From an uncultured Alphaproteobacteria bacterium (GTDB lineage Bacteria > Pseudomonadota > Alphaproteobacteria > Rhizobiales > Beijerinckiaceae): DNA of 64,000 nucleotides. The stretch covers positions 164,995 to 228,994 of the forward strand of contig CAVVTP010000011.1 in the NCBI GenBank assembly GCA_963751165.1. Direction: 5' to 3'. The position numbers were made by a program, and so were the translations under genes. Shown piece after piece: positions 9,488 through 63,666 of the stretch (positions within the stretch are counted from its first letter, which is position 1; every line of letters begins with the position of its first letter). The notes under the pieces are model-generated. The model was not told where the DNA came from and did not search any database. It was given only the letters and a program-made list of their open reading frames with translations.

Positions 9488-10385
9488 TCAGACGCGCGAC
9501 CGCAGCGAAGGCCCTGTCAACGCAACGCCCGCGAGGACGAGCGCGAGGCCGGCCCAGGCGGCGACGGCGACCGGCTCTCGCAGCGCCGCCGCGCCCGCCA
9601 TGACGCCGATCAAGGGAACGACGTAGTTATTGAGGCTGGCGAAGGTCGGCCCTTCGCTCGCGATCAGGCGGAAGTAGATATAATAGGCGAGCGCGGTGTT
9701 GAGGACGCCGAGCGCAACCATCGCGGCGATCGGAGCGTACGGCGCGGCGAGGGTCGCGTCGACCGACGGCCGGTCGCCGAGAGCGAGATCAATTCCCGCC
9801 AACACGACAGTCGATATCGTCATCGACGCGGCGACGGCTTTGGCGGCTCCGATTTCGCGCGTCGGGGCCGCCTGAGAAGAGGGCGCTCATTGCGTAACAG
9901 AAGGCGGCTGCGAGCGCGATCGCCCGCCCCTCGACGGGATTTGGGGCGGCAGCGGTCTGCCCGACCGGAGATAAAAGCGCGAGGCTGACGCCGGCAAATC
10001 CGAGTGCGAGCCCGAGCGCGCCCCTGAGGCTCCACCGGTCGCCCGACCCGACGAACCGTCCAACGAGAAAAACAAAGATCGGTGAGGCGCCCATCATCAG
10101 CGCCATGTCAGCGCTGCTCGCCAGTTTCGCGGCCTTGCCGAGCAGCAGGAAGGGGACGACCTGGCCGGCCAGCGAGAGGACGACGAGCTTGCTCCAAAGT
10201 CCCAGCCGCCGGCCAGGCCAGATGGGTCCCGCGAGCGCGGCCCCGACGAGAAGCGCACCGGCGGCCACGCCGACCCGCGCGAGCGCGAAACCGAAAGGAT
10301 CGAAGACGCGAGCGGCGATCTTGATCAGGAAAAACGAGGAGCCCCAGAGAAACGACAGAAACGCCAGGCTCGCATAGGCCGCCAT
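9488..10385 (-). CDS. EamA/DMT-family transporter, split by a frameshift at about 9825-9880
   Basis: Two consecutive minus-strand ORFs (9789-10586 and 9488-9823), both polytopic with EamA-like repeats. Probable start is MAAYASLAFLSFLWGSSFFLIK at about 10385. Confidence 0.6.
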
Positions 10386-15683: not shown

Positions 15684-16250
15684 TCAGCGCCTCGACGCCG
15701 AACGCCGGTTCGATTGCCCCGGGCATAAAGATCGTCCCGAATGACGAGCTTCATTCCCCAGCGCGAACTCCAAGTTCTCCTCCGTCAACCCGACCCTTAG
15801 CCGACCAAGGGGTTCACCACCGCAATGTTCGCGACGCGGTTGAAGTCGCGATCCGCCGACCAAAGCTCGCCCCCCATGCTGCTTACAAGAGTTCGCGATG
15901 CGCGCATCGGGAACCTGAGCCCCGGCAATTCGTCCGGCGACGATCAGCGCCCGCAACGACGGCCAGTGGGCTTCCCACTCAGCCAAGAGCACGAGCGTGG
16001 GCGCCTCGAGCCAAGCGTCCGCCCTGTCGAGCGCCCGGCGCAAGCGCGTTGGAGGCGCGTAGATGCGGGGATGGGTGACAGTAGCGAGAAACTCGTGAGT
16101 GCATGGCCAGGGGATCGACCACGTCACCGGTCCCTCCGTGAGTTCCGCAATTCGCTTCGAAGCAGCATCGTGAAACGGCGAGTCCTCGCGATGAGCGTGG
16201 CGGGAATGTTCGTGTCGACGGCGATCAAGCGCCGCGAACTCTCATAGCCC
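15684..16250 (-). CDS. PIN-domain (VapC-like) toxin, disrupted by a frameshift near 16127
   Basis: The PIN N-terminal motif LIAVDTNI is in the 16124-16459 ORF frame. The continuation (....QVPDARIAN...) is in the 15684-16127 frame. Sits next to a VapB-like antitoxin. Confidence 0.35.
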
Positions 16251-16253
16251 AGT

Positions 16254-16481
16254 TCACACAGCTTGTCCCACGACGCGTCGTGGAGAAAACTGGCTGAAGC
16301 CCCCTGCCCTTGAAGCTGGCGTGGCGCAGCTTGAAGGGCGCGGTTGGCCTTGTCTCCGCGACGACACGACGAAGCCCCGCTCCACGCACAAGCGCAGCGT
16401 GACTCCCTCGCGCTCAGGAAGCTTGTGGACCTCGCGAAGAAGCGGATCGGAAACTTCAATCCTCGTCTTCATGGTCCTCAC
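16254..16481 (-). CDS. VapB-family antitoxin-like small protein
   Basis: N-terminus MKTRIEVSDPLLREVHKLPEREGVTLR resembles VapB/RHH-type antitoxins. The C-terminus appears frameshifted. Confidence 0.4.
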   Translation of the reverse strand: MRTMKTRIEVSDPLLREVHKLPEREGVTLRLCVERGFVVSSRRQGQPRPSSCATPASRAGGFSQFSPRRVVGQAV

Positions 16482-16592
16482 GTATGGGACAAGCTATATG
16501 GCCGCCCATACTCTAGATTGTTGGGCCCAGGGAGCAAGTCGCCGCGCTCTGTGGATGTCTGGCGACCATCGATTTCGCTGCTTGCGCGACTG

Positions 16593-19500
16593 TCACCGGA
16601 AATTTCGCCCCGCCGGCATCGCGCGCCTCGCCTCGATGATCTCGGATGCGATATCGGCTGGCGCATGCGGCGCGTCGAGCCGCGGCGTCTGGGCGAACCT
16701 GTTGCCCTGGCGCTTCTGCGCCATCGTCAGCTGCGGCCGTTTGACTTCGTCGGCGCGGGCAGTCGCCGCGATCGTCTCTCCTGCCTCCGACAGGAGCCCG
16801 AGCCACGGCGTCAGGTCCTCCATGCGGTCGGCGACGACGTGGACGACGCCCTGCTCGTTCTGCAGCTTCCCGGTGACGGCGACGAAGCGGGCGCCGAGCA
16901 CGATTGCGCGCAGGCGCTCGAACGCCTTCGGCCAGACGATGACGTTGGCGACGCCCGTCTCGTCCTCGAGCGTCATGAAGATGACGCCCTTGGCGGTGCC
17001 GGGCCGCTGGCGCACCAGCACGAGGCCTGCGACAGTCACGCGCTCGCCGCTCTTTGCCGAGGCAAGCGCCTCCGAGCGCAGGATTCCCCGCGCGGCGAGG
17101 CGGGCGCGCATGAACGAGGTCGGATGGGCCTTCAAGGACAGCGACAGGCGCCGGTAGTCCTCGACCACATGCGTCCCGAGCGGCATCGGCGGCAATTTCG
17201 CGTCGGGCTCCGCCTCGCGTCCGGGCCGCGAGGCGGCGAACAGCGGCAGGTCGTCCTGGTCGCCGACCCGGTCAAGGCCGCGCACCGCCCACAGGGCCTG
17301 GCGCCGGTTGAGGCCGAGCGAGCGGAAGGCGTCGGCGTCGGCGAGCTTTTCGAGCGTGGCGGCGCCGAGGCCGCTCCTGAGCCAGAGGTCGCGCACCGAA
17401 TCGTAGCCTTCTCCTCGCCGCTCGACCAGACGGCGCATGTCGTCCTCCTTAACCCCGACAACCTGCCGCAAGCCAAGGCGCACGGCACGAGTTCGCGCGG
17501 ATGAAAGGCGCCATCGAGGCGTGGCGGGGGTGGATGTTTCCCTTCTCCCGCTCGCGGGAGAAGGTGTCGCCGAAGGCGACGGATGAGGGCTTTGCGCCCT
17601 CGCCCTCACCCCCGACCCCTCTCCCGCAAGGGGGAAAGGGGAGAGACTCCAGCGTGCAGTCCCAGTCCGACAGGTTGACATCGACCTCGCGCAATTCGAC
17701 GCCGTGCTCGCGCGCGTCGCGCACGAGCTGGGCGGGCGCGTAGAAGCCGAGCGGCTGGGAGTTGAGCATCGCGGCGGCGAAGACGTCGGGGTAGCGGCAT
17801 TTCATCCAACACGAGGCGTAGACGAGAAGCGCGAAGCTCGCCGCGTGGCTCTCGGGGAAGCCGTATTCGCCGAAACCCTCGATCTGGCGGAAGCAGCGCT
17901 CGGCGAAGTCGCGATCGTAGCTCCTGGCCGCCATGCCCTCGATCATCTTGTCCTGAAACGTCTGGATCGTGCCAACCCGGCGGAAGGTCGCCATGGCGCG
18001 GCGCAGCCGGTCGGCTTCCGAGGGCGTGAAGCCGGCCGCGACGATGGCGATCTTCATCGCCTGCTCTTGGAAGAGCGGCACGCCGAGCGTCTTCTTCAGG
18101 ACCGCCTCGAGCTCCCGCGAGGGATAGACGACCTCCTCGAGCCCCTGCCGGCGACGCAGATAAGGGTGCACCATGTCACCCTGGATCGGGCCAGGCCGCA
18201 CGATCGCGACCTCGATGACGAGGTCATAGAACGTCTCGGGCCTGAGGCGCGGAAGCATCGACATCTGCGCCCGGCTCTCGATCTGAAACACGCCGATCGT
18301 GTCGGCGCGCTGGATCATCGCGTAGACGCAAGCCTCCTCCGGCGGGATGGTCGCGAGCGTCAGGCTCTCGCCATAATGTTTTCCAAGGAGATCGAGGCTC
18401 TTAGACAGCGCCGTCAGCATGCCGAGCGCGAGCACGTCGATCTTGAGGAGGCCGAGCGCGTCGAGATCGTCCTTGTCCCATTCAATGGTGGTGCGGTCCT
18501 CCATCGCGGCGTTCATGACGGGAACGACCTCGTCGAGCCGGTCGCGAGTGATGACGAAGCCACCGCTGTGCTGGGTGAGATGGCGTGGAAAGCCGGTCAA
18601 TTCCTCCGCCATTTCTAGCGCCAGCCTGAGCGTTGGATCGGCCGGATCGAGGCCCGCGGCGCGCGCCTCCTTCTCGCCGATCGGCGTCGAGCCGTGGCCC
18701 CAGGCGGTTCCGTTCAGCGCCGTGATCACGTCATCGGAAAGGCCGAACACTTTCGCCGTCTCGCGGATCGCCGAACGCGTCCGGTAGGTGGTCACCGCCG
18801 CGGCGAGCCCCGCCCGCTCGCGCCCGTAGCGCCGGTAGATGTACTGGATGACCTCCTCGCGCCGCTCATGCTCGAAATCGACGTCGATGTCCGGCGGCTC
18901 GTTGCGTTCGGGCGAGACGAAGCGCTCGAACAGGAGATCGAAGCGCGCCGGATCGACCTCGGTGATTCCGAGACAGAAGCAGACCGCCGAATTCGCCGCC
19001 GAGCCGCGGCCCTGGCATAGAATTCCGCGCGAGCGGGCGAAACGCACGATATCATGCACCGTGAGGAAATAGGGCGCATAGTCGAGCGAAGCGATGAGGG
19101 CGAGCTCGTGCTTCAGCACCTCGCGCGTCCTCTCTGGCACGCCCTCGGGATAGCGCGCCCTGGCGCCTTCGAGGGCGAAGGCTTCGAGCGCGGCCTGCGG
19201 GTCGGGAAAACCCTCGCGCAGCTCCTCCGGGTAGCTGTGCGCAAGTTCATCGAGGCTGAAAGCGAGGCCGTCGAGGAAGCTTATCGTCTCCTCGACCGCC
19301 GCCGGCGCCTCGGCGAACAGCCGCGCCATTTCGCGCGGGTCTTTCAGATGACGTTCGGCATTGGCCTGCGTCAGGCGGCCGGCGGCCTCGAGTATCGTCT
19401 TCTCGCGGATGCAGGCGACGACGTCGGCGAGCGCGCGTCGCTCGGGCGCATGCATCAGCGCGTCGTTGGTCGCAAGGAGCGGCGCGCCGAGCCTCTTCGC

Positions 19501-20144
19501 CAGCGTCGCGCGCCTCGCCAGCGCCCCCCGCATGTCCTCCCCGTAGGTCAGGCTCGCGCCGATCCACAAGCGCCGGCCGAAGGCTTCACGCAGGCGGCTG
19601 AGAATCTTGCCCTCACCCCCAACCCCTCTCCCGCATAGCCCGTTGAGAGACGGGCGTCTTTCGACGCCCTTTGCGGGAGAGGGGCGCGCGTCCCTTCTCC
19701 CGCTTGCGGGAGAAGGTGGCCCGAAGGGCCGGATGAGGGGAAGCGCCACGATCTGCAGCCCCGCGCCATGCTCGAGGAGATCCTCGACCTGTAGTCGGCA
19801 CTCGCCCTTCGGCGCGCGCAGGTTTCCCGCGGTGAGAACCCGGCAGAGCCGGCCGTAGGCCACGCGGTCCTTCGGATAGGCGAGGAGATCGGGCGTCCCG
19901 TCGTCGAATGCGAGCCGCACGCCCGGAGCGATCCGCATACCCATGAGCGCCGCCTTGTTCTCGCGGGCGAAGACATGCGCGCGCACGACGCCGGCAAGCG
20001 TGTTGCGGTCGGCGATCCCGATCCCGGCGAGCCCGAGCTCCGCCGCCCGCGCGACCATCTCCTCGGGATGCGAGGCCCCGCGCAGGAAGGAGAAATTCGT
20101 CATCGCCGCCAGCTCGGCGAAGTGCGGCTCGAGGCGGATCATTT
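16593..20144 (-). CDS. dnaE2: Error-prone DNA polymerase DnaE2 (ImuC), reconstructed from two ORFs (17449-20229 and 16593-17681). Contains two mosaic-repeat insertions, and the frame changes across the second one.
   Basis: N-terminal PHP domain [24 protein letters not shown], with AGGAAAAATG-type context directly after a repeat hairpin. The polymerase core and the C-terminal [16 protein letters not shown] are collinear with ImuC. Gene order imuA-imuB-dnaE2. Confidence 0.85.
17540..17646. repeat. Mosaic palindromic repeat, solo cargo-less copy: H1 hairpin CCCTTCTCCCGCTCGCGGGAGAAGG, H2 hairpin GTCGCCGAAGGCGAC, module GGATGAGGGC, inverted module, terminal hairpin CCCCTCTCCCGCAAGGGGG. Lies inside dnaE2 at the point where the reading frame changes.
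   Basis: Direct reading of the sequence. The same modules recur at 19606, 20147/20577, 20941, 24244 and 61975. Confidence 0.7.
19606..19745. repeat. Mosaic palindromic repeat copy read through in frame inside dnaE2. Encodes ...[40 protein letters not shown]...
   Basis: Modules CTTGCCCTCACCCC, CCCCTCTCCCGCA[loop GCCCGTTGAGAGACGGGC]GCGGGAGAGGGG, CCCTTCTCCCGCTTGCGGGAGAAGG, GGCCCGAAGGGCC, GGATGAGGG. The 926-aa ORF runs through it without a stop. Confidence 0.7.
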
Positions 20145-20146
20145 TT

Positions 20147-20640
20147 CCCTTCTCCCGCTTGCGGGACAAGGCGGCGCGCCGAAGGCGCGCCTGATGAGGG
20201 CAAGAGCGCGCCTCACCATGACAAACCACATTTCGCGGCGATGGTCGCCAGCACGCTCTCGCGCGCCGTCAGAACGTCGCGATTACTGAATCGCAGGACC
20301 GTGTAGCCTTCGCGAGCGAGCCAGGCGACGCGAACAGAATCGCGTCGGCTCTCGGCATGTTGTGATCCATGCGCTTCCACGACGAGCCGGTGTGCGACGC
20401 AGAGGACGTCGACGATATAGGAGCCAATCGGCGCTTGCCGGCGAGACTTGAGCGCCTGCATGCGTCGGTCGCGCAGGGCGTACCAGAACCGCCGTTCGGC
20501 GTCGGTCGGATCGGTGCGCATCGTACGCGCGCGGGATTTTGCGGAAATGGGGACGTCGTTGCGCATGACTGTCTCCTCTCTTGCCCTCATCCAGCCGCGC
20601 TTCGCGCGCTCACCTCTCCCGCAAGCGGGAGAAGGGATCA
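20147..20640 (-). mobile_element. Candidate small mobile element: a DUF559 endonuclease gene flanked by terminal inverted repeats built from the mosaic-repeat modules, inserted between the imuB stop and the dnaE2 start
   Basis: Left end: CCCTTCTCCCGCTTGCGGGACAAGG, GGCGCGCCGAAGGCGCGCC, TGATGAGGGCAAGAG. Right end: CTCTTGCCCTCATCC, GCCGCGCTTCGCGCGC, CCTCTCCCGCAAGCGGGAGAAGGG. These are the reverse-complement order of the same modules. Solo copies such as 17540-17646 have the identical ends with only about 5 bp between them. Confidence 0.5.
20213..20566 (-). CDS. DUF559 (Vsr-like very-short-patch-repair endonuclease fold) domain protein
   Basis: About 117 aa: [35 protein letters not shown]...[23 protein letters not shown]...[22 protein letters not shown] matches the DUF559 family. 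Strong SD GAGAGGAGA 6 nt upstream. Same strand as imuB and dnaE2, so it can be co-transcribed from the LexA-controlled promoter. Confidence 0.7.
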
Positions 20641-22341
20641 CGCGAACACCCCGTGCACAAACCATTTCGCCTGCTCCGTCTCTTTCCCCCAGAGGCCCTC
20701 ACGGTAGAGCCAGAAGCGGCGGCCGTGTGAGTCCTCGGCGCGGAAATAGTCGCGCGTCGGGACGTCAGGGCTGCGCCACCAGGGAGCGGCGATGCGCTCG
20801 GGGCCCTCGATGGCAGCGACGTCGTGCAGCACGCGCCGCCAGCGGAAGCGGAGCGGCGGCCCGTCCGGCACTTCGGCGATCGCGTCGATCGGCTCGGGGC
20901 GGGTGAAGAGTCTCAGCGGTCGCGCCGGCGCGCTTCCTTCGCCCTCATCCGGCGACCCCCGGATCAAGTCCGGAGATCCCCGGCTACCTTCTGCTGCATA
21001 GAGCGTCGAAAGACGCCCGTCTCTCGATGGGCTAGGCAGGAGAAGGAATTCGCCCCCTCTCCCGCATGGGGCGTCGAAAGATGCCCGTCTCTCGACGGGC
21101 TTTGCGGGGGAGGGCTGGGGTGAGGGTGCGAGCGAAGCCGGCGCAACCCGCTCGGCCTGTTCGGGTAGATGCGCTTCGACGCGTTCGCGTCGCGTCACCG
21201 CGCGCACCCCCAGCCTCGCGCCGAGCCGATCGATGAGATCGGCGAGCGCGCGGGTTCGCTCGGCCTCGTAGGCGCGCTCGAGTTCGGCCTGCGAGGGCTC
21301 GAGCGGTTCGGCCATGAGGCACGAGAGGCGTATGAGGTCGACGCCGAAGCCCGCTTCGATCGCCTCCTCCTGCAGGCTTGCGAGCTTTTCGGCGAATAGG
21401 CGGAGAAAAGCGCGAGCTTCGTTGAGCGGCCGCGAAGCGCCGACCAGGATGCGGCGCACGTTGCCGTCGACGCGGTAGAGGCTGAGCTCGATCCGCCGAG
21501 CCCCCTTGGCCTGCCGCTCGAGCAGTACGACGAGATCGTCGGCGAGCTTGCGCAAAGACGCCTCGATCGCCTCGACCGTCTGCACGGGCGAGGTGAAGCG
21601 CCGCTCGGCGCAGAAATCGGGGGCGGCGAAGCGCGGCGCGATCGAGGCGCGATCGAGGCCTTTCAGCGCGTCGAGCCGCGCCATCGGCTGGGCGCCGAAC
21701 CGCGCCGTGATCGGCGCGCGCGGCCTGAAGGCGATGTCGCCGACGCGTTTCAGGCCCGCCCGCGCCATGTCGGCGACGGTCTTGTCGTCGAGGCCGAGGG
21801 CGGCGAGCGGCAGGTCGTGGAAGAGCCTTGCGAGGGCCTTGTCGCTCAAGGGCTCGGGCGCGATCTTCTGCGTCGAAAAGCGCGCCAGCGCCCAGGCGGC
21901 GCGCGGATTGCCGGCGGCGCCGCCCGCCGCGGCGACGCCGAGCGCGGCGAGGCGGCTGACGCAAGATTCCATCAGCGCCTGTTCGCCGCCGAACAGATGC
22001 GCCACGCCGGAAATGTCGAGCATCAAGCCGTCGCGTCCGTCGAGCGCGGCGAGCGGGGTGAAGCGAGAGCACCAGTCGCATAAACGCTCGAGAAGCCGCG
22101 CCTCTTCCGCCGGATTAGCCTGGACCGCGACGAGGGCGGGATGACGCGCGCGCACGTCCGCCAGCGAGAGGCCGGCCGTCAGGCCGAGTTTTGCGGCGTT
22201 CATGTCGACGCAGACGAGCCGCTCGGCGTTGTTGACCCTGGCGACCGCCGCGAGCGGCGCCGCCCGATCAATGGCCTCGAGCCGCCGGGCTCGGTCCGTC
22301 GCCAAACGCGGCAGCCAGAGAGAGAGAAATCGCCGAATCGT
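20638..22341 (-). CDS. imuB: ImuB (Y-family polymerase-like SOS mutagenesis protein), carrying an in-frame mosaic-repeat insertion
   Basis: Collinear with ImuB. Likely TTG start at 22341 (MTIRRFLSLWLPRLATDR) behind GAGGAG, whereas the listed ORF extends to 22395. C-terminus ...RLFTRPEPI...WFVHGVFA. The stop abuts the DUF559 element. Confidence 0.8.
   Translation of the reverse strand, partial: TIRRFLSLWLPRLATDRARRLEAIDRAAPLAAVARVNNAERLVCVDMNAAKLGLTAGLSLADVRARHPALVAVQANPAEEARLLERLCDWCSRFTPLAALDGRDGLMLDISGVAHLFGGEQALMESCVSRLAALGVAAAGGAAGNPRAAWALARFSTQKIAPEPLSDKALARLFHDLPLAALGLDDKTVADMARAGLKRVGDIAFRPRAPITARFGAQPMARLDALKGLDRASIAPRFAAPDFCAERRFTSPVQTVEAIEASLRKLADDLVVLLERQAKGARRIELSLYRVDGNVRRILVGASRPLNEARAFLRLFAEKLASLQEEAIEAGFGVDLIRLSCLMAEPLEPSQAELERAYEAERTRALADLIDRLGARLGVRAVTRRERVEAHLPEQAERVAPASLAPSPQPSPAKPVERRASFDAPCGRGGEFLLLPSPSRDGRLSTLYAAEGSRGSPDLIRGSPDEGEGSAPARPLRLFTRPEPIDAIAEVPDGPPLRFRWRRVLHDVAAIEGPERIAAPWWRSPDVPTRDYFRAEDSHGRRFWLYREGLWGKETEQAKWFVHGVFA
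20941..21136. repeat. Mosaic palindromic repeat copy read through in frame inside imuB. Encodes ...[64 protein letters not shown]...
   Basis: Modules GCCCTCATCCGG, nested hairpins CCCCCTCTCCCGCA[GGGGCGTCGAAAGATGCCCGTCTCTCGACGGGC]GCGGGGGAGGG, GGGGTGAGGGTGCGAG. The 585-aa ORF is continuous across it. Confidence 0.7.
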
Positions 22342-23164
22342 CAAAAGTCGTCTCCTCGCTTCGCCATTCGAGCCTGACTGCCCGCGCGGGGTCATTTAGC
22401 CGTGCTCGCTGAACGCGGCCGTCGCGGTTCATAGGACATCCGGAAGGACGCCCGTCTCCCGACGAGCTATCGGCCGCGCCTACAGAACCGCCAAGGCGCG
22501 CCTTGACGAGCCGCGCCCGGCAGGCGAAGGGGCCCGGCAGGTCCCGGCCAGCCGCCGCAGAAATTTTTGCGCTCGGTGCGGCGGCGATCTCGAACCGCGT
22601 CTCGGCTGCGCTCGACAGTTTGTCCGCCTGGCCATAGGCGCTCGCCAGGACGAGCAGCGCCGGCGCGCGCCCTTTTCGCGCAGCGAGCAGCAGGCGGCGG
22701 GAGGCGGCGAGGCTGTAGCCCTTCAAGTTCCAAATCTCGCCGACGACCGCAGCCGTCGCGCCGCATTTGAGCGCCTCCTCCATCGTCCAGAATGCCGCCT
22801 CGGCGTCGGGCGCCTGGACGAAGACGAGGCGGCTTACGGGAAGCCCATGCGCGGCGAGCCCCGGCCCATAGAGCGCGCCTGCCTCGCGCCCCACGAAACT
22901 CTCGCCGACGAACAGCGCGGCCGACGGCCGTTGCTTCAGGAATTGCGCGGCGAGAGCGAGCGCGAAGCCCATCGCCGCGGCCCCGTCGGCCGGCTCCGCC
23001 GGGGCGATCTCGTGCAGGGCGTCGACGGCGAGGCCTCCGCCGAGCGCTGGATCGAGCGCGCGGGCAAGCGGGAGCCGCCGCGCGGCGCGCTGAAGTCCCG
23101 TCCCCTCGATTTCCGAGACGGCACGCCGCAAACGCGCCATCTCCGCTTTGCCGCCGAGCGACAT
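22268..23164 (-). CDS. imuA: ImuA (RecA/SulA-like SOS mutagenesis protein). The 3' end is uncertain and the ORF probably over-extends across a repeat fragment at 22447-22467.
   Basis: First gene of the cassette. ImuA-like N-terminal 230 aa. A LexA box lies 19 bp upstream of the ATG at 23164. The last 60-70 codons overlap imuB and look non-native. Confidence 0.65.
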   Translation of the reverse strand: MSLGGKAEMARLRRAVSEIEGTGLQRAARRLPLARALDPALGGGLAVDALHEIAPAEPADGAAAMGFALALAAQFLKQRPSAALFVGESFVGREAGALYGPGLAAHGLPVSRLVFVQAPDAEAAFWTMEEALKCGATAAVVGEIWNLKGYSLAASRRLLLAARKGRAPALLVLASAYGQADKLSSAAETRFEIAAAPSAKISAAAGRDLPGPFACRARLVKARLGGSVGAADSSSGDGRPSGCPMNRDGRVQRARLNDPARAVRLEWRSEETTFDDSAISLSLAAAFGDGPSPAARGH

Positions 23165-23182
23165 TCGGTCTCACGCCTTTCT

Positions 23183-23197
23183 GTTCAATCTTTGTTC
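23183..23197. promoter_or_regulatory. Alphaproteobacterial LexA (SOS) box GTTCaatctttGTTC upstream of imuA
   Basis: Exact GTTC-N7-GTTC, with a second overlapping GTTCtcgttttGAAC palindrome at 23194-23208. Located 19 bp upstream of the imuA start. Confidence 0.8.
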
Positions 23198-23439
23198 TCG
23201 TTTTGAACCTTGGCGCGGCGAGAGTCAAGAGGACGGGCGCGCATGGCGCTGACCTTCAGGTCCGCGAGGCATGCGGGGTCCTCGCAAACATCCCGATATC
23301 GTTAGACGGCTTGAGCCTGACGCCGATGTCATTCCACAGTTTTTCTGCCGGTGACCCCCTGCTTTTGCTCCAGGCACAGCGGAACAAAACGGGCGGCGCG
23401 AGCACGCAAGCCCTCTTATTTCAAAGAGCCGGGAAGGCA

Positions 23440-23621
23440 GCCCGGCGATTACGCCAAAGTATGGACGCCGCCGCCCGGCAAGGCGCCCAGAAGCCAAAGC
23501 AACACCAGGACGACCGGACCAGTCCCAGCACGCCACCGAGACCGGGACCGCCACAGCTGCCGGTAGCCGTAGTAGCCGCCTCCGCCACTGAGAATGATCA
23601 GCACCAAAAATGATCAGAAGG
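23440..23621 (-). CDS. Small two-TM membrane protein (DUF3309-like, GGGGYYGY motif), apparently disrupted by a homopolymer indel
   Basis: Reading ATGATAACGATCCTTCTGATCATT...: after removing one T from a T5 run the ORF becomes MITILLIILVLIILSGGGGYYGYRQLWRSRSRWRAGTGPVVLVLLWLLGALPGGGVHTLA (60 aa). Confidence 0.3.
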
Positions 23622-23685
23622 ATCGTTATCATATGCGCAGGCCCTTCGATCCGAACCGACAACAGGGGCGCGCAGGAACGAGAGG

Positions 23686-23961
23686 TTAGCTCAATTGCTC
23701 GCCCTCTTGAACCTTTGCCTGCCCTTTATAGGGAGAGCGAGGCCGGATGCCGGTCTCGCTCCATGGCGGAGAGCCGGCTACTTCGCCGACTGGCTCTTCC
23801 GTCAGCCGTCTCCGAGTGCTCGTGTGCGGTCTTCGACTTGCTGTGCGCCCGGGCGGATTCCTCCCGCCCTTGGCGTGATCCCCCTTGGCACGATGCTCCG
23901 CCGCCATGCGGTGGCTCCTGGCGGCATTGTCGTGGTGATCGGCAGCCTTGCTGTGGGCGTC
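23686..23961 (-). CDS. Small His/Ala-rich hypothetical protein (MPKDAHSKAADHHDNAARSHRMAAEHRAKGDHAKGG...). The 3' part changes frame.
   Basis: Strong SD GGAGGCTCTC before the ATG at 23961. Repeated AxxHH/AAEH motifs. Downstream, a second frame continues the His-rich theme (ARAHSKSKTAHEHSETADG), suggesting an indel. Confidence 0.3.
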   Translation of the reverse strand, partial: DAHSKAADHHDNAARSHRMAAEHRAKGDHAKGGRNPPGRTASRRPHTSTRRRLTEEPVGEVAGSPPWSETGIRPRSPYKGQAKVQEGEQLS

Positions 23962-24243
23962 CTTGGGCATGAGAGCCTCCTCTGTCGAATTTAAGATCGA
24001 CCCCGCCAGAACGTTCGAGACGAACGAACCTGCCGTGGGAGCGCGCGGCGGTCGGCGGCACGCCGAACCTGGCGTCAGGGAGGAACCACATGCGTCAGAT
24101 CGTGGCGCCGTAGCCGTTGTCTGGCTCTTTGCCCTTACGCGCGAGCAATAACGGACGATGGACAGGATATCGGGCGCCGCCTGCGACGGCGACCCCGACG
24201 CGAAGGCGGTCGTCAGCTGCGCGACCAAGTAGATCCTCGCCCC

Positions 24244-49322: not shown

Positions 49323-50061
49323 GCGGTCGGGCAGCCAACAGTTCGTGGCGGCAAACCCAAGCCGTCGCGGCGTCGGTCCCACCCGGACGCGGCGCCGACC
49401 CCAAGTCGCCGCCAACGCGCAACAACACCCACCCATTCGCAAATCACCCGTTATCATAGGGGTAAAACAATCAAAGCCAGTGGATATTGCGCCAAAGTCC
49501 GGGGAAGCCGGAGCAAAGCCAAGGGAAGCCGGAGCAAACAAAAAGTCTTCCTAGAATCTATAATTTTCAAGGCTTTACACCGGAATCCAAATCGTTTGAT
49601 CGTTTGCGTCTCCGTGCCCCGCCTCCTCGCCCTTCTTGGCCCCCCTCGGGCGCCAGCCGGCCAATGAGCCTCCGATTCATCGCCGCCGCCCGATTTTTAT
49701 CCATGCCGGCGTCGTTTCCGCCTGGGCTGGACGGACTCTGTTCGAAAGTCGCTCAGACCACATTATGTTCCTTATTTGTTCACAGCGCAAGACATTTTCG
49801 AGGCGGCTGCCCGCCAGGGTTAATGGCTCCGCGCTCTGGGCGGGCATCCCGGGCGATCGATACGACGATGGGGCGCGCCCCGCGCGCGGCCTCGTGGCCG
49901 GGGCGCCGAAGCGGATCTCGGCGTAGCGCGCCGGAGGGTGATCAGGGCGCCCCGGCAATCGTTCCTCGACGCTCCGCCGCCGGTCCAGGCGGCAACCTGT
50001 CGCGGCCCTCCCGATCTAGGTATGATCCGCCCGGAAGGTCGGTCCCGACGAGGGTGGCAAA

Positions 50062-51408
50062 TTGAACACGACGCCCAATGACACGTCAGCCGATCCCGAG
50101 CAGGTCATAGCCGTCCTGCAAAGTCAGCTTGCAGAGTGCAAAGCCGAGCGTGACGAGGCGCTCAAGCAGCAGTCCGCAAGCGCCGAGGTGTTACAGGTGA
50201 TTAACGCATCGCTCGGCAATCTTGCGCCAGTTTTCGACGTCATTTTGGAAAAGGCGCACGGCCTCTGCGGCGCCGACCGTGGCAGCTTGTACATAACTGA
50301 TGGTGAGACCTTTCGCGCAGTGGCCGCGCACGGTCTGTCACCTGCGTTTGCGCAATTGATAAGACAGCCATTTCACCCGGGCCCGAACCACCCCGTCCAA
50401 CAGTTGATCGGTGGTTGTTCGTTTGCTTCAGTTCAGGATGCAACTGAGGTCGACGACCCAATTATACAGAGTTCACTCAAGCTTTCCGGCATGCGCAGCG
50501 CGTTATTTGTGCCGTTACGAAGAGACAAGGTTCTATTGGGCTATGTGGTCGCAAGTAGCCCTGATGTGCGGGTATTCACCGACAAGCAGATCGCGCTGCT
50601 ACAAAACTTCGCTTCTCAGGCGGTCATTGCGATGGAGAACGCGCGGCTGCTCGACGAACTGCGCGAGCGCACCGATCAGATAGCGGAGCTGAACCGCGGT
50701 CTCGAAGCGCGGGTCGCAGAACAGGTCGCGGAGTTGGGACGGATCGGGCGACTGAAGCGGTTTCTGGCTCCGCAGCTGGCGGAGTTGATCGTGTCGCAAG
50801 GCAACGAGCAGATCCTCGAAAGCCATCGCCGCGAGATCGTCGTCGTGTTCTGCGATTTGCGCGGTTACACCGCCTTCACCGAGACGGCCGAACCAGAGGA
50901 AGTGCTCGATCTGCTGCGCGAGTACCACGGCGCGTTGGGACCTCTCGTCCTTCAATTCGAGGGGACGCTCGACCAGTTCTCGGGCGACGGGATTATGGTG
51001 TTCTTCAATGACCCGGTCCCCTGTCCCGATCCGGCGGAGCGCGCGATCAAGATGGCAGTGACGATGCGGCAAGCCGCCGGCGCATTGACTGCCAAGTGGC
51101 GCCGGCGCGGCCGTGAGCTGGGCTTTGGCGTCGGGATAGCTCAGGGCTATGCGACATTGGGCCAGATTGGTTTCGCTGATCGCTCCGGCTACACCGCGAT
51201 CGGCACGGTATGTAATCTTGCCGCCCGTCTCTGCGCGGAGGCCAAGGACGGACAAATCCTTGTCGCCCAGCGAGTCGCCGTCGAGGTCGAGAAGGCGACG
51301 ACGCTCGAAGAAATGGGAGCGCTTGCCCTGAAGGGGTTGAGAGAGCCTGTGGTAGCTTTCAACGTGCCGCTAACCGTCGGGCCCACCGATAATATCTCAT
51401 CGAAGTAA
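50062..51408 (+). CDS. GAF-domain sensor fused to a class III adenylate/guanylate cyclase
   Basis: N-terminal coiled coil. GAF domain (LYITDGETFRAVAAHG...). C-terminal CYC domain (VVVFCDLRGYTAFTE...FSGDGIMVFFNDP...GIAQGYATLGQIG). Confidence 0.8.
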   Translation: MNTTPNDTSADPEQVIAVLQSQLAECKAERDEALKQQSASAEVLQVINASLGNLAPVFDVILEKAHGLCGADRGSLYITDGETFRAVAAHGLSPAFAQLIRQPFHPGPNHPVQQLIGGCSFASVQDATEVDDPIIQSSLKLSGMRSALFVPLRRDKVLLGYVVASSPDVRVFTDKQIALLQNFASQAVIAMENARLLDELRERTDQIAELNRGLEARVAEQVAELGRIGRLKRFLAPQLAELIVSQGNEQILESHRREIVVVFCDLRGYTAFTETAEPEEVLDLLREYHGALGPLVLQFEGTLDQFSGDGIMVFFNDPVPCPDPAERAIKMAVTMRQAAGALTAKWRRRGRELGFGVGIAQGYATLGQIGFADRSGYTAIGTVCNLAARLCAEAKDGQILVAQRVAVEVEKATTLEEMGALALKGLREPVVAFNVPLTVGPTDNISSK

Positions 51409-56077: not shown

Positions 56078-56195
56078 TGGCGTCGCCAGGCGCGCGAAAA
56101 TGCGTCCCCTGAAATCCCCTCACCGAACAGGATGCGATAGATTGTCGGAGCACGCAATATTCGGGTCTGATTGACTCTTGGTGCAAGTGGTCTTT

Positions 56196-57068
56196 CTACA
56201 ACGGCATCATCCGAGCGCGGAGCAACTCGACTCCGGCGCGGCCATACATGGCTCGCTTGAGGGTCTTCAATTTGTTGATCTGTCCTTCGGTCTGTCCGTT
56301 GCTCCAGGGTTCCGACACAGCGTTCCGAACCGCCTCCAGGTCTTGGCGTATCGTCCTCGCGAAACGCTGCAACGCGTAGATGCCAGACGCGCGAGCGTCG
56401 ATCAGCCAAGCGTCCAGGCCCTCCGGCGTTCCGCCACGAAGCAGGCCTCGAAAGCGCATCGCCAGGCGCCGCATCGCGGTGAACTCGGCGGACGCCGCTT
56501 TCAGCGCGGCGACGTTGGCGGCCTGCCGGGCGGTCATCTGGCCGCGGGGTTTGACGCACAGCGCCGCGGCGGTGAGCGGCGAGATCAGGCGACCAGTCAT
56601 CGGATCCAGCGTTCGCACGCGGACCGGGGCCCGCTCCCCCTGCTCGTCGCCATCGAGTAAAGGCTTGCCGCCGCGCCAGGGAGCAAGGAAACGCGCCAGA
56701 TGACTGAAGGACCCGGTATAGCCGCGATGGCGTATCTCGGCGAATAAGTGCCGAACCTTAGTGATGCCTTCGGCCCACCGCCGCTCCAGCAGAACGCCAA
56801 AATACGCCGGGGCGGAAGGGGTTGACGCCATTGTGTTGCGGTCCGGCAAATCGATCCGACGGACCCACCGTTCGACCCGCCGGCGACCAAGACCGAGTTT
56901 TTGGGCGATTTCCCGGATGGAACTGCCACCTTCAAAAAGCGTCCTGATCTCATCGAATAGCTGTTGCCGGACAGCTTGGCAGTATTTGGCATCGCAAACG
57001 CACGTGATTGAGCCGATGCTGCGCTGTTGCGCTGCGCTTAAATGGGGTCTGATTGACTTCTGGTGCAA
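56196..57068 (-). pseudogene. ISL3-family transposase derivative (HTH region plus C-terminal SNGQTEGQINKLKTLKR motif, DDE core missing), copy 1
   Basis: ...IREIAQKLGLGRRRVERWVR...PWSNGQTEGQINKLKTLKRAMYGRAGVELLRARMMPL. About 290 aa versus about 450 for intact ISL3 transposases. Confidence 0.6.
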
Positions 57069-57077
57069 GTCGTCTTC

Positions 57078-57893
57078 CTACAACGGCATCATCCGAGCGC
57101 GGAGCAACTCGACACCGGCGCGGCCATACATTGCTCGCTTGAGGGTTTTCAATTTGTTGATCTGTCCTTCGGTCTGCCCGTTGCTCCACGGTTCCATCAC
57201 AGCGTTCCGAACAGCCTCCAGGTCCTGCCGTATCGTCCTCGCAAAACGCTGCATCGCGTAGATCCCAGACGCGCGCCCGTCGATCAGCCACGCATCCAGC
57301 CTCTCCCGCGTTCCACCGCGAAGCAGACCTTGAAACCGCATCGCCAGATGCCGCATCGCGGTGAACTCCGTCGACGCCGCCTTCAGCGCATCGACGTTGG
57401 CGACCTGCCGGGCGGTCATCTGGCCACGGGGTTTGACGCAAAGCGCCGCCGCAGTCAGCGGCGAGATCGCGCGGCCGGTCATCGGATCCAGTGTTCGCAC
57501 ACGGACCGGCGCTGGCTCCTCCTGCTCGACACGCACCTGCTCGTCACCATCGAATGAAGGCTCGCAGTTGCGCCAGGGAGCGAGGAAACGTGCCAGATGG
57601 CTGTAGGACCCGGTATAGCCGCGATGGCGAATCTCAGCGAACAAGTGCCGGACTTTGGTAATGCCTTCAGCCCAACGCCGCGCCAGCAGAGCGCCGAAAT
57701 ACGCTGGGGTGCACGGATTTGGCGCCATGGTGTTGCGATCCGGCAAATCGATGCGACGGACCCAACGTTCGACCCGTCGGCGACCAAGACCGAGCTTGCG
57801 AGCGATCTCCCTGACGGAACTGCCACCTTCAAAAAGCGCTCTGATTTCATCGAATAGCTGTTGCCGAATCGCCTGGCGTCCGTGGCGCATCAA
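57078..57893 (-). pseudogene. ISL3-family transposase derivative, tandem copy 2
   Basis: Near-identical to copy 1 (same internal deletion). Confidence 0.6.
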
Positions 57894-59830: not shown

Positions 59831-62893
<3,063 letters not shown>

Positions 62894-62961
62894 CGGACCT
62901 CGACGACAATTTTCGGGCTTCGAGCGCGAATCGCGCTTGCGCGAGCCGGGTCTCGATGCTA

Positions 62962-62976
62962 GAACAAATAAAGAAC
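62962..62976. promoter_or_regulatory. LexA (SOS) box GAACaaataaaGAAC in the divergent uvrA-ssb intergenic region
   Basis: Exact GAAC-N7-GAAC, the reverse complement of the alphaproteobacterial GTTC-N7-GTTC consensus. Confidence 0.75.
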
Positions 62977-63168
62977 AAGGGGAAGGCGCCCCGTGCGCCC
63001 TGCCTCCGGTTCTCCCTAATGTAGGCGAGGCGGCGCTCCTTCCCAAGCGTCGCGCGCGCCGAAGTGTGGACAAGTCTGGTTGTCGAGCGCGCTGACGGCC
63101 TCGCCTGCGCCGCTTTCGGCTATGCATGATGAAACGAGCAGCGCCGCAGGGCGCGTCAGGAGCAGACC

Positions 63169-63666
63169 ATGGCGGGCAGCGTCAACAAGGTGATCCTCGT
63201 CGGCAACCTGGGCAAGGACCCGGAAGTGCGCCGGCTGAATTCCGGCGATCCGGTGGTGAGTTTCTCCCTCGCCACCTCGGACTCCTGGCGCGACAAGACC
63301 ACAGGCGAGCGAAAGGAACGCACCGAGTGGCACAACATCGTGATCTTCAACGAGAACCTCGGTAAAATCGCCGAGCAGTACTGCAAGAAGGGCACGAAGG
63401 TTTACGTCGAAGGCCAGCTGCAGACGCGCAAATGGCAGGACCAGAGCGGCAACGACCGCTATACCACCGAGATCGTGCTGACCCGCTTCCGCGGCGAACT
63501 GCAACTGCTCAACTCCCGCGGCGGCGGCGAGGCCCGCGACAGTTTTCCCGATGAGAACGGCTCCCGCAGCTTCGCCCGCCCGTCTATTGGCGGCGGCGAG
63601 CGCAAGCCGGCGCTCTCCGGCGGCGTCGGAGGGCCCGGGCCGATCGACGACGATATTCCATTCTGA
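63169..63666 (+). CDS. ssb: Single-stranded DNA-binding protein
   Basis: [21 protein letters not shown]...OB fold...Gly-rich tail ending in the acidic DDDIPF. Confidence 0.9.

Follow-up and report, generated by a model that had tools for sequence, protein, structure and literature searches.

Repetitive extragenic palindromes (REPs) lying inside open reading frames (ORFs) have been catalogued by Di Nocera, De Gregorio and Rocco (2013, BMC Genomics 14:522; PMC3733652), who found many of them in replication and repair genes and noted that such genes are sometimes, or even often, a genome's only REP-tagged ORFs. The catalogue includes in-frame REP dimers or groups in dnaE2 of R. palustris (RPE_1827, residues 128-157), S. 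wittichii (Swit_1119, 166-246) and E. litoralis (ELI_05390, 175-203), REPs in dnaE2 of O. terrae (934-971), in dnaE of R. conorii (853-861) and in uvrA of several species, and CGTC REPs without a known transposase. Here we analyze a stretch of 64,000 nucleotides (the window) from contig CAVVTP010000011.1 of an uncultured Beijerinckiaceae bacterium, in which an SOS mutagenesis operon (imuA-imuB-DUF559-dnaE2) carries palindromic repeats that are read through in frame in imuA, in imuB and at two sites in dnaE2. The best explanation, with a probability of roughly 0.72, is that these segments are dispersed, GC-rich, nested palindromic repeats of the type of REPs, REPINs (REP doublets forming hairpins) or RIMEs (Rhizobium-specific intergenic mosaic elements) that have colonized tolerant sites of the imu operon.

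REPs at the position of our DnaE2 site 1 are already published (PMC3733652): the dnaE2 sites between residues 128 and 246 correspond to the same PHP-domain loop, and the R. conorii dnaE copy lies near our site 2. Those REPs, however, belong to GTAG- or CGTC-tagged families that encode other peptides, imuB and imuA are not reported (there is no "ImuB" in the table), and occupancy of a whole operon, turnover within a clade, a nested series of alleles and a link to DUF559 are not described. New in this work are the involvement of imuB and imuA, the simultaneous occupancy of the whole operon, clade turnover with a nested growth series, frame-switch evidence against selection on the peptide, a quantified enrichment and the association with DUF559. 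Repair genes as preferred hosts of intragenic REPs are hence extended from dnaE2 and uvrA to the entire imu operon.

The Rickettsia palindromic elements (RPEs), reportedly described by Ogata et al. in 2000, are likewise dispersed palindromic repeats that lie in frame in functional ORFs, are translated and are tolerated where the protein forms a loop or surface. Known only from Rickettsia, RPEs are AT-rich, whereas the present host is a free-living bacterium of about 68% GC with nested mosaics at four sites of one operon. The resemblance to RPEs proposed in the first-pass annotation of this DNA holds for behavior (palindromic, dispersed, within ORFs that stay open, in linkers) but not for membership. 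The elements do not belong to the Rickettsia RPE families: compared by peptide and GC content rather than by nucleotides, they have 66-70% GC and encode peptides unlike VIPAKAGI, SFPRKRES and DSRFRGND... of R. conorii (PMC3733652).

REPINs and REPtrons offer a further parallel, in that they comprise short imperfect palindromes with many dispersed copies and inverted doublets that fold into long hairpins; moreover, the small DUF559 gene is flanked by inverted units as the genes for REP-associated tyrosine transposases (RAYTs) are by REPs. The flanked gene, however, encodes a PD-(D/E)XK Vsr-like nuclease instead of an IS200/IS605 HUH tyrosine transposase. RIME or Sm-repeats of Sinorhizobium and box C of E. 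coli are palindromic families described as intergenic. Our elements resemble the former as mosaic GC-rich palindromes in intergenic Rhizobiales DNA (601 places) and the latter through a CCCTC..GGGAG..GGGGTGAGGG repeat beside ycjD, both likened by description rather than by consensus sequence, and differ from them in occurring also within ORFs. In Coxiella burnetii (PMC5896051), miniature inverted-repeat transposable elements (MITEs) in ORFs are presented as small non-autonomous elements that add peptide segments to proteins; both the organism and the element differ from ours.

Anatomy of the repeat units

An all-against-all search for short non-syntenic similarity, run on the window and 40 related loci, marked six segments in the 64 kb (17533-17645, 19606-19751, 20145-20206, 20580-20639, 20987-21126 and 22430-22470), all of which fall inside the imu cassette. 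The core palindrome CYTCTCCCGCNNGCGGGAGARGG has 11 matches, counting both strands, against 0.02 expected, and three further modules have one to three matches each against at most 0.02 expected; therefore, the repeats are not a product of chance. The coding and intergenic copies are as follows.

20926-21129, minus strand: insert of nested palindromes in the ImuB inter-domain linker; residues 406-473, 68 residues
19606-19751, minus strand: DnaE2 site 1, inverted doublet with tails outward in a PHP-domain loop; residues 136-179 (19606-19737), 44 residues
17533-17646, minus strand: DnaE2 site 2, inverted doublet with tails inward, before IHPRHA and the HhH domain; residues 833-869 (17536-17646), 37 residues
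22397-22492, minus strand: variable, repeat-derived C-terminal insert of ImuA; residues 225-256, 32 residues; repeat-similar core at 22430-22470
20580-20639, minus strand: repeat unit in the imuB-DUF559 spacer (hairpin 1, hairpin 2, GGATGAGGGCAAG tail), 1 nt past the imuB stop; left arm around DUF559
20145-20206, minus strand: repeat unit in the DUF559-dnaE2 spacer (CTTGCCCTCATC tail, hairpin 2, hairpin 1), with its end 3 nt ahead of the ATG of dnaE2; right arm around DUF559

The basic unit of about 50 nt consists of hairpin 1 (CCTTCTCCCGC-NN-GCGGGAGAAGG), an optional hairpin 2 and a tail, which is GGATGAGGG or, in a variant devoid of hairpin 2, GGGGTGAGGG. The stem of hairpin 2 varies among copies (GGCCCTTCGGGCC, GTCGCCTTCGGCGAC, GGCCGGCGAAGCCGGCC and GGCGCGAAGCGCC), with pairing always kept. 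Units are arranged as inverted doublets, and more hairpins are nested within their loops: a 36-nt double hairpin (GCCCGTC-GAGA-GACGGGC then GCGTC-TTTC-GACGC) may occupy the loop of hairpin 1, and CCCCCGGA-CTTGA-TCCGGGGG, itself a hairpin, may sit within hairpin 2. The ImuB insert contains two copies of a unit with the double hairpin in its loop, together with an expanded second hairpin and a GGATGAGGG tail. Of the two tetranucleotide tags that mark one end of REP palindromes, GTAG and CGTC, hairpin 1 carries neither; the nested hairpin GGGCGTC-TTTC-GACGCCC has CGTC within its stem. As in MITEs, terminal inverted repeats (CTTCCCCTCATCC ... GGGTGAGGGCAAG) delimit the element at DnaE2 site 1. The predicted mRNA folds of the three coding copies in imuB and dnaE2 outperform those of shuffled controls (z = -4.7, -6.1 and -6.0), and an Rfam scan of 16000-24000 at E<=1 returned just one spurious microRNA match.

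In-frame inserts in ImuB, DnaE2 and ImuA

The first-pass annotation had placed read-through copies in imuB and dnaE2. Both are real and in frame, with boundaries in our census within a few bases of those originally given, and they add 68 and 44 residues instead of the estimated 65 or so and 46 or so. Three features had not been noticed then: an insert in imuA, a pair of intergenic units flanking DUF559 and, in uvrA, an element of similar kind. Out of the six possible reading frames, one is open across the imuB insert, three across DnaE2 site 1 and four across site 2. Therefore, the openness of the inserts is partly a by-product of GC-richness and partly the mark of a survival filter.

The 68-residue ImuB linker compares with a median of 21 residues (10th-90th percentile, 14-54) in 139 diverse ImuB representatives, and related genomes in which the linker is empty have about 50 fewer residues there. 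An AlphaFold model built on a 112-sequence alignment reached a mean predicted local distance difference test score (pLDDT) of 88.8 and a predicted template modeling score of 0.81, whereas a shallow alignment of 21 sequences gave an unusable mean pLDDT of 45. In the former model, residues 418-466 form the sole segment below a pLDDT of 50 and no secondary structure is assigned over residues 402-476, which places the insert in a linker, predicted to be disordered, that joins the Y-family-like module to the C-terminal beta domain. The insert stops a few residues ahead of the conserved PLRLF motif. A sequence search with ImuB found no match in the copy of the Protein Data Bank that was searched.

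In DnaE2, site 1 lies just before the region that aligns to residue 162 of the E. coli polymerase III alpha subunit, and site 2 just after a stretch that aligns to residue 881 of the T. aquaticus alpha subunit, ahead of the HhH domain. Both sites coincide with gaps in alignments to solved polymerase III alpha structures and both are short in the Ferrovibrio outgroup. The expectation that the inserts occupy positions at which homologues have short linkers was borne out by orthologue alignment, since outgroups or relatives with empty sites are short at each of the three positions; sequence alignments, together with the AlphaFold model for ImuB, assign the inserts to the inter-domain linker of ImuB and to loops of DnaE2. 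This maps permissive sites in ImuA, ImuB and DnaE2 that are useful for tagging and engineering the mutasome.

Turnover of the sites among related genomes

The nearest relatives of the locus are metagenome-assembled genomes (MAGs) of the Roseiarcus group and the isolate Roseiarcus fermentans. Throughout this clade the same four coding sites are hypervariable, with differing module combinations in more than 30 related genomes, R. fermentans included. ImuB linkers range from 138 nt when empty (empty linkers, 138-144 nt) to 414 nt and host several different repeat families. At the DNA level they form a graded series that leads from empty linkers (loci L026 and L004) to a simple two-hairpin unit (L036), then to linkers whose loop 1 encloses a double hairpin (L003, L027 and L034) and to an expanded hairpin 2 (L006 and L008), and ends in this window with all these features and an extra unit. 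Both DnaE2 sites vary among 17 orthologues: site 1 is empty in L164 (LQIVAM-GGSAP-LLSRLREVF) and elsewhere holds doublets in different arrangements, and at site 2 the doublet is the same but its orientation differs with the species. With empty, simple and nested alleles at four orthologous sites in more than 30 genomes, the clade constitutes a natural experiment.

The site 1 elements of the window and of L003 are about 97% identical in DNA, yet indels of 1 and 2 nt put the central 20 codons in different frames, after which the common frame returns. What is under selection is therefore the frame and its openness, not the peptide of the insert. Palindromic selfish DNA can thus be followed as it enters and evolves in proteins with essential folds, the reading frame being kept and the peptide not.

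This variation also bears on the idea that the repeats are kept for regulation of the mutasome, either as mRNA hairpins that attenuate, pause or stabilize the transcript or as peptides that tune ImuA-ImuB-DnaE2 activity; regulation and selection have been speculated on for intragenic REPs before (PMC3733652). Several features favor such a role: the predicted RNA structures are very stable, hairpin 2 pairs perfectly while its stem sequence differs among copies and species, something is retained at both DnaE2 sites in every clade member, the repeats of the window are confined to repair genes of the LexA regulon (the imu operon and uvrA), and the ImuB insert ends close to the PLRLF motif. However, neither the insert peptide nor even the internal reading frame is conserved, module content, orientation and length vary freely between close species, empty alleles exist, and the same family occurs in unrelated genes and mostly in intergenic DNA. 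Conserved hairpins, moreover, are expected of any element spread by a hairpin-recognizing mechanism. We consequently deem a regulatory role improbable. Of the two possibilities raised in the first-pass annotation, insertion-tolerant linker sites are well supported by the different elements at the same sites, the empty alleles and the unconserved peptide, whereas selection on the activity of the mutagenesis cassette found no support in anything testable here.

Native low-complexity linkers or assembly artifacts could in principle mimic such inserts, because ImuB linker length is variable in general and the window comes from an error-prone assembly in which uvrA is fragmented. The same DNA modules, however, recur in at least five other places of the cassette and at hundreds of unrelated loci, and orthologues with empty sites exist. 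The inserts are not artifacts because they are present in short-read (k141) MAGs and in the isolate R. fermentans, within a total of more than 30 independent assemblies. Both variants of this explanation were rejected on the recurring modules, the empty orthologues and the independent assemblies, and we give it next to no credence.

Two side observations concern the same proteins. A subclade (L011, L016, L017, L019, L024, L025 and L030-L032) has imuA-imuB without dnaE2 or DUF559 within 10 kb, and its ImuB linkers hold other repeat families, with peptides such as HCEELSDEAIQ and GLLRFARNDE. ImuA of loci L010-L034 (about 9950-10100) has a second variable region near its C-terminus, which in many relatives consists of tandem short peptide repeats (QDLTFKDMTF..., QFEELQFEEL) and is absent from the window.

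Dispersal of the family and a proposed history

The module at 19672-19752 has 601 matches in 234 plasmid or chromid records of Rhizobiales (Sinorhizobium, Rhizobium, Shinella and Azospirillum); among the 30 matches listed, none overlaps an annotated feature. In metagenome contigs, a scan for the exact pattern recovered at least 120 loci; among the matches listed, cassette genes are present at 4 of 120 and the other 116 lie elsewhere, so that a family specific to the cassette was rejected. A few genuine in-frame copies in other genes, among 140 matches listed, were found in Mur ligases (L073/L148 and L076) and MetH (L125). The sole further copy in the window is a diverged inverted doublet in uvrA, at about 61975-62095, which is read through between UvrA profile positions of about 244 and 245.

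The distribution of the elements suggests that in the ancestor of the Roseiarcus clade they would have colonized a few tolerant places of the LexA-controlled imuA-imuB-DUF559-dnaE2 operon, namely, the C-terminal linker of ImuA, the disordered ImuB linker, the PHP loop and the hairpin loop ahead of the HhH domain of DnaE2, and two spacers. Only insertions whose length and frame keep the ORF open would survive, to be translated as P/G/R/S-rich filler that is presumably neutral for protein function. Resident palindromes may then serve as landing pads or conversion partners, and repeated refilling, nesting, inversion and partial deletion would generate the hypervariable linkers seen across species.

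Several points weigh against this history. No target-site duplications are visible when filled and empty sites are compared, and no transposase, parent insertion sequence or fresh insertion was observed, no scan of the RAYT/IS200 type having been made; we therefore infer mobility from distribution only. Empty ImuB linkers still resemble the right half of a unit, so that part of the variation could reflect the decay of a single ancient insertion instead of repeated insertion. Tolerance alone also leaves unexplained why the density of repeat segments is about 10-fold higher in the cassette (0.64 per kb) than in 581 kb of flanks that include intergenic DNA (0.062 per kb; binomial p ~1e-44), and why the only non-cassette copy in 64 kb sits in uvrA, another SOS gene of the LexA regulon.

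The DUF559 gene and its palindromes

DUF559 stands at the same cassette place in about 21 related loci, and every close homologue looked up (at least 68% identical, including that of R. fermentans) lies between imuB and dnaE2 in neighborhoods that otherwise differ. It is therefore a stable fourth gene of the clade's cassette, and the notion of a wandering gene in this clade is not supported. On metagenome contig L048, DUF559 is found upstream of imuA instead.

Inverted units enclose the gene in the window and in most related loci, their tails directly next to it, in the order hairpin 1-hairpin 2-GGATGAGGGCAAG-ribosome-binding site-ATG ... TGA-GGCGCGCT-CTTGCCCTCATC-hairpin 2-hairpin 1. The arms in L164 are about 48 nt long and almost perfectly complementary, and a second DUF559 allele type, just 48-50% identical, is bracketed likewise. 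The element at dnaE2 site 2 reproduces the same layout with the gene missing. The local concentration of repeats would be accounted for if the resident DUF559 protein were the dedicated nuclease of this family, with a RAYT-like role: it would nick or cut hairpins, preferably near its own gene, and repair that copies other units would spread and reshuffle them. This minority reading, which is compatible with colonization of tolerant sites, strikes us as rather unlikely but would be considerably more interesting if a cognate nuclease coupled insertion to the SOS response.

Association of DUF559 with palindromes extends to unrelated contexts and to several phyla. Palindromes of the CCCTCNCCC-loop-GGGNGAGGG type occur within about 250 nt at 10 of the 13 DUF559 loci examined, and inverted arms score above every shuffle at 7 of the 13, in E. 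coli weakly. The DUF559 gene of S. meliloti pSymB (L177) has 125-nt arms with a score of 224 versus a shuffle maximum of 57. In Sphingomonas (L181/L182) the flanked genes occupy two places, one between sufB and sufC, the other between gatB/yqeY and dnaG. CCCTCNCCC-loop-GGGNGAGGG palindromes also flank the genes of Deinococcus (L187), Synechocystis (L188) and A. lipoferum (L176). Shinella, Methylobacterium and Azospirillum TSH58 have a palindrome upstream only; E. coli ycjD (L185) has one downstream only, a CCCTC..GGGAG..GGGGTGAGGG repeat that adjoins the gene. No such palindromes were found at the remaining 3 of the 13 loci. In a metagenome sample, all three DUF559 genes lie within 100 nt of a repeat. 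Cassettes with DUF559 average 5.4 module matches versus 0.9 in those devoid of it, and within imuA-imuB alone the values are 0.83 versus 0.20 (p = 0.006, uncorrected for phylogeny). As a side observation, DUF559 genes of distant bacteria appear as intruders in conserved neighborhoods (sufB-sufC; gatB/yqeY-dnaG), with arms that are near-perfect inverted copies.

Against a dedicated nuclease stands the fixation of this DUF559 subfamily at one cassette position: it behaves more like an operon member passed on vertically than like a mobile gene. VsrA, the DUF559 protein of Caulobacter, is reported to be induced by DNA damage, and its proposed role is that of an ordinary SOS-induced endonuclease for T:G mismatches (PMC12907096). 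Lineages that lack DUF559 still have ImuB linkers filled by other repeat families, 3 of 13 DUF559 loci have no palindromes, and the association was judged without matched random small genes. Literature searches returned nothing specific on DUF559 with repeats, on imuB with very-short-patch repair or on RIME in coding regions. The association is a lead and not a demonstration.

A bolder and still more doubtful extension is that DUF559 proteins in general serve a widespread CCCTCNCCC-loop-GGGNGAGGG / GGGGTGAGGG repeat superfamily as its dedicated endonucleases, the two forming a REPtron built on a different enzyme. Besides the elements described here, that superfamily would take in the RIME-like repeats of Rhizobiales and possibly box C of E. 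coli. One copy would have been domesticated by Roseiarcus in the LexA-controlled imu operon, where hairpins nicked upon damage, once repaired in an error-prone or templated manner, would give rise to new and reshuffled repeats nearby. If true, this would account for the preference of such repeats for SOS and repair genes as intragenic hosts, and DUF559 would be a testable candidate mobilizer for REP-like families that lack a known transposase.

The frame break in dnaE2

A third repeat copy, at DnaE2 site 2, was originally noted to coincide with a change of frame. The PRK05672 profile is covered at positions 4-808 by the ORF at 17449-20229 and at positions 809-1039 by that at 16593-17681; therefore, dnaE2 is complete but read in two frames. 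The break itself lies outside the repeat:

17493, minus strand: single extra base, A on the sense strand; sense CGCGCG-A-ACTCG (GCG-AAC versus GCG-ACT), by comparison with L001

The extra A falls in the conserved native IRAT-AVRLG motif, 40 nt downstream of the site 2 repeat. It is missing from L001, an independent European Nucleotide Archive assembly that is 99.74% identical over 11.7 kb and encodes an intact DnaE2 of 1182 residues with the same in-frame element. A frameshift caused by the repeat was accordingly rejected. Several sibling long-read MAGs have dnaE2 in 4-7 pieces. In the window, uvrA (59831-63127, minus strand) is split into at least five ORFs, with NCBIfam UvrA pieces at 5-173, 245-316, 396-556 and 686-942, which shows that this assembly contains indel errors. 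Because L001 is intact while the sibling dnaE2 genes and the uvrA of the window are broken, the frame break is probably a consensus error of long-read metagenome assembly rather than a real pseudogene; a very recent strain-specific mutation is the less likely of the two, though by no means far-fetched. Apparent dnaE2 pseudogenes of this kind, and repeat-derived peptides that inflate such proteins, can confuse annotation.

The operon and its surroundings

All genes of the cassette are on the minus strand, in the order LexA box-imuA-imuB-DUF559-dnaE2.

23183-23197, minus strand: LexA (SOS) box with the sense-strand sequence GAAC-N7-GAAC; the ATG of imuA follows after 19 nt
22268-23164, minus strand: imuA, 298 residues (NCBIfam ImuA_translesion, E=1e-14; 40 orthologues aligned)
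20638-22344, minus strand: imuB, 568 residues, TTG start at 22344 behind GGAGA (Pfam IMS/IMS_C; orthologue starts)
20214-20566, minus strand: DUF559 gene (Vsr-like PD-(D/E)XK endonuclease), 117 residues (Pfam PF04480, E=4e-34)
16593-20142, minus strand: dnaE2, error-prone polymerase (NCBIfam PRK05672), split into two ORFs by the extra base at 17493

Gene order, family-level matches and the upstream LexA box identify the locus as an imuA-imuB-dnaE2 SOS mutagenesis cassette. GTTC-N7-GTTC is the alphaproteobacterial consensus of the LexA box; the window contains four such sites versus 2.1 expected, a number that is not significant on its own. Two more LexA-box-like sites are found at 62962-62976, between the divergent uvrA and ssb (63169-63666), and at 49767-49781, within an uncharacterized ORF (49487-50065) that has no Pfam match and precedes a GAF-adenylate/guanylate cyclase gene (50062-51408).

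In R. fermentans, the DUF559-dnaE2 spacer is enlarged to 488 nt (L163, 5355-5842) and holds a small G/L-rich ORF of 59-60 residues and, immediately upstream of dnaE2, a second LexA box (GAACAAAGATTGAAC). Elsewhere in the window, two adjoining stretches of about 880-900 nt at 56163-57835 are 86-90% identical (direct repeat families D1/D2) and are probably tandem paralogous genes.

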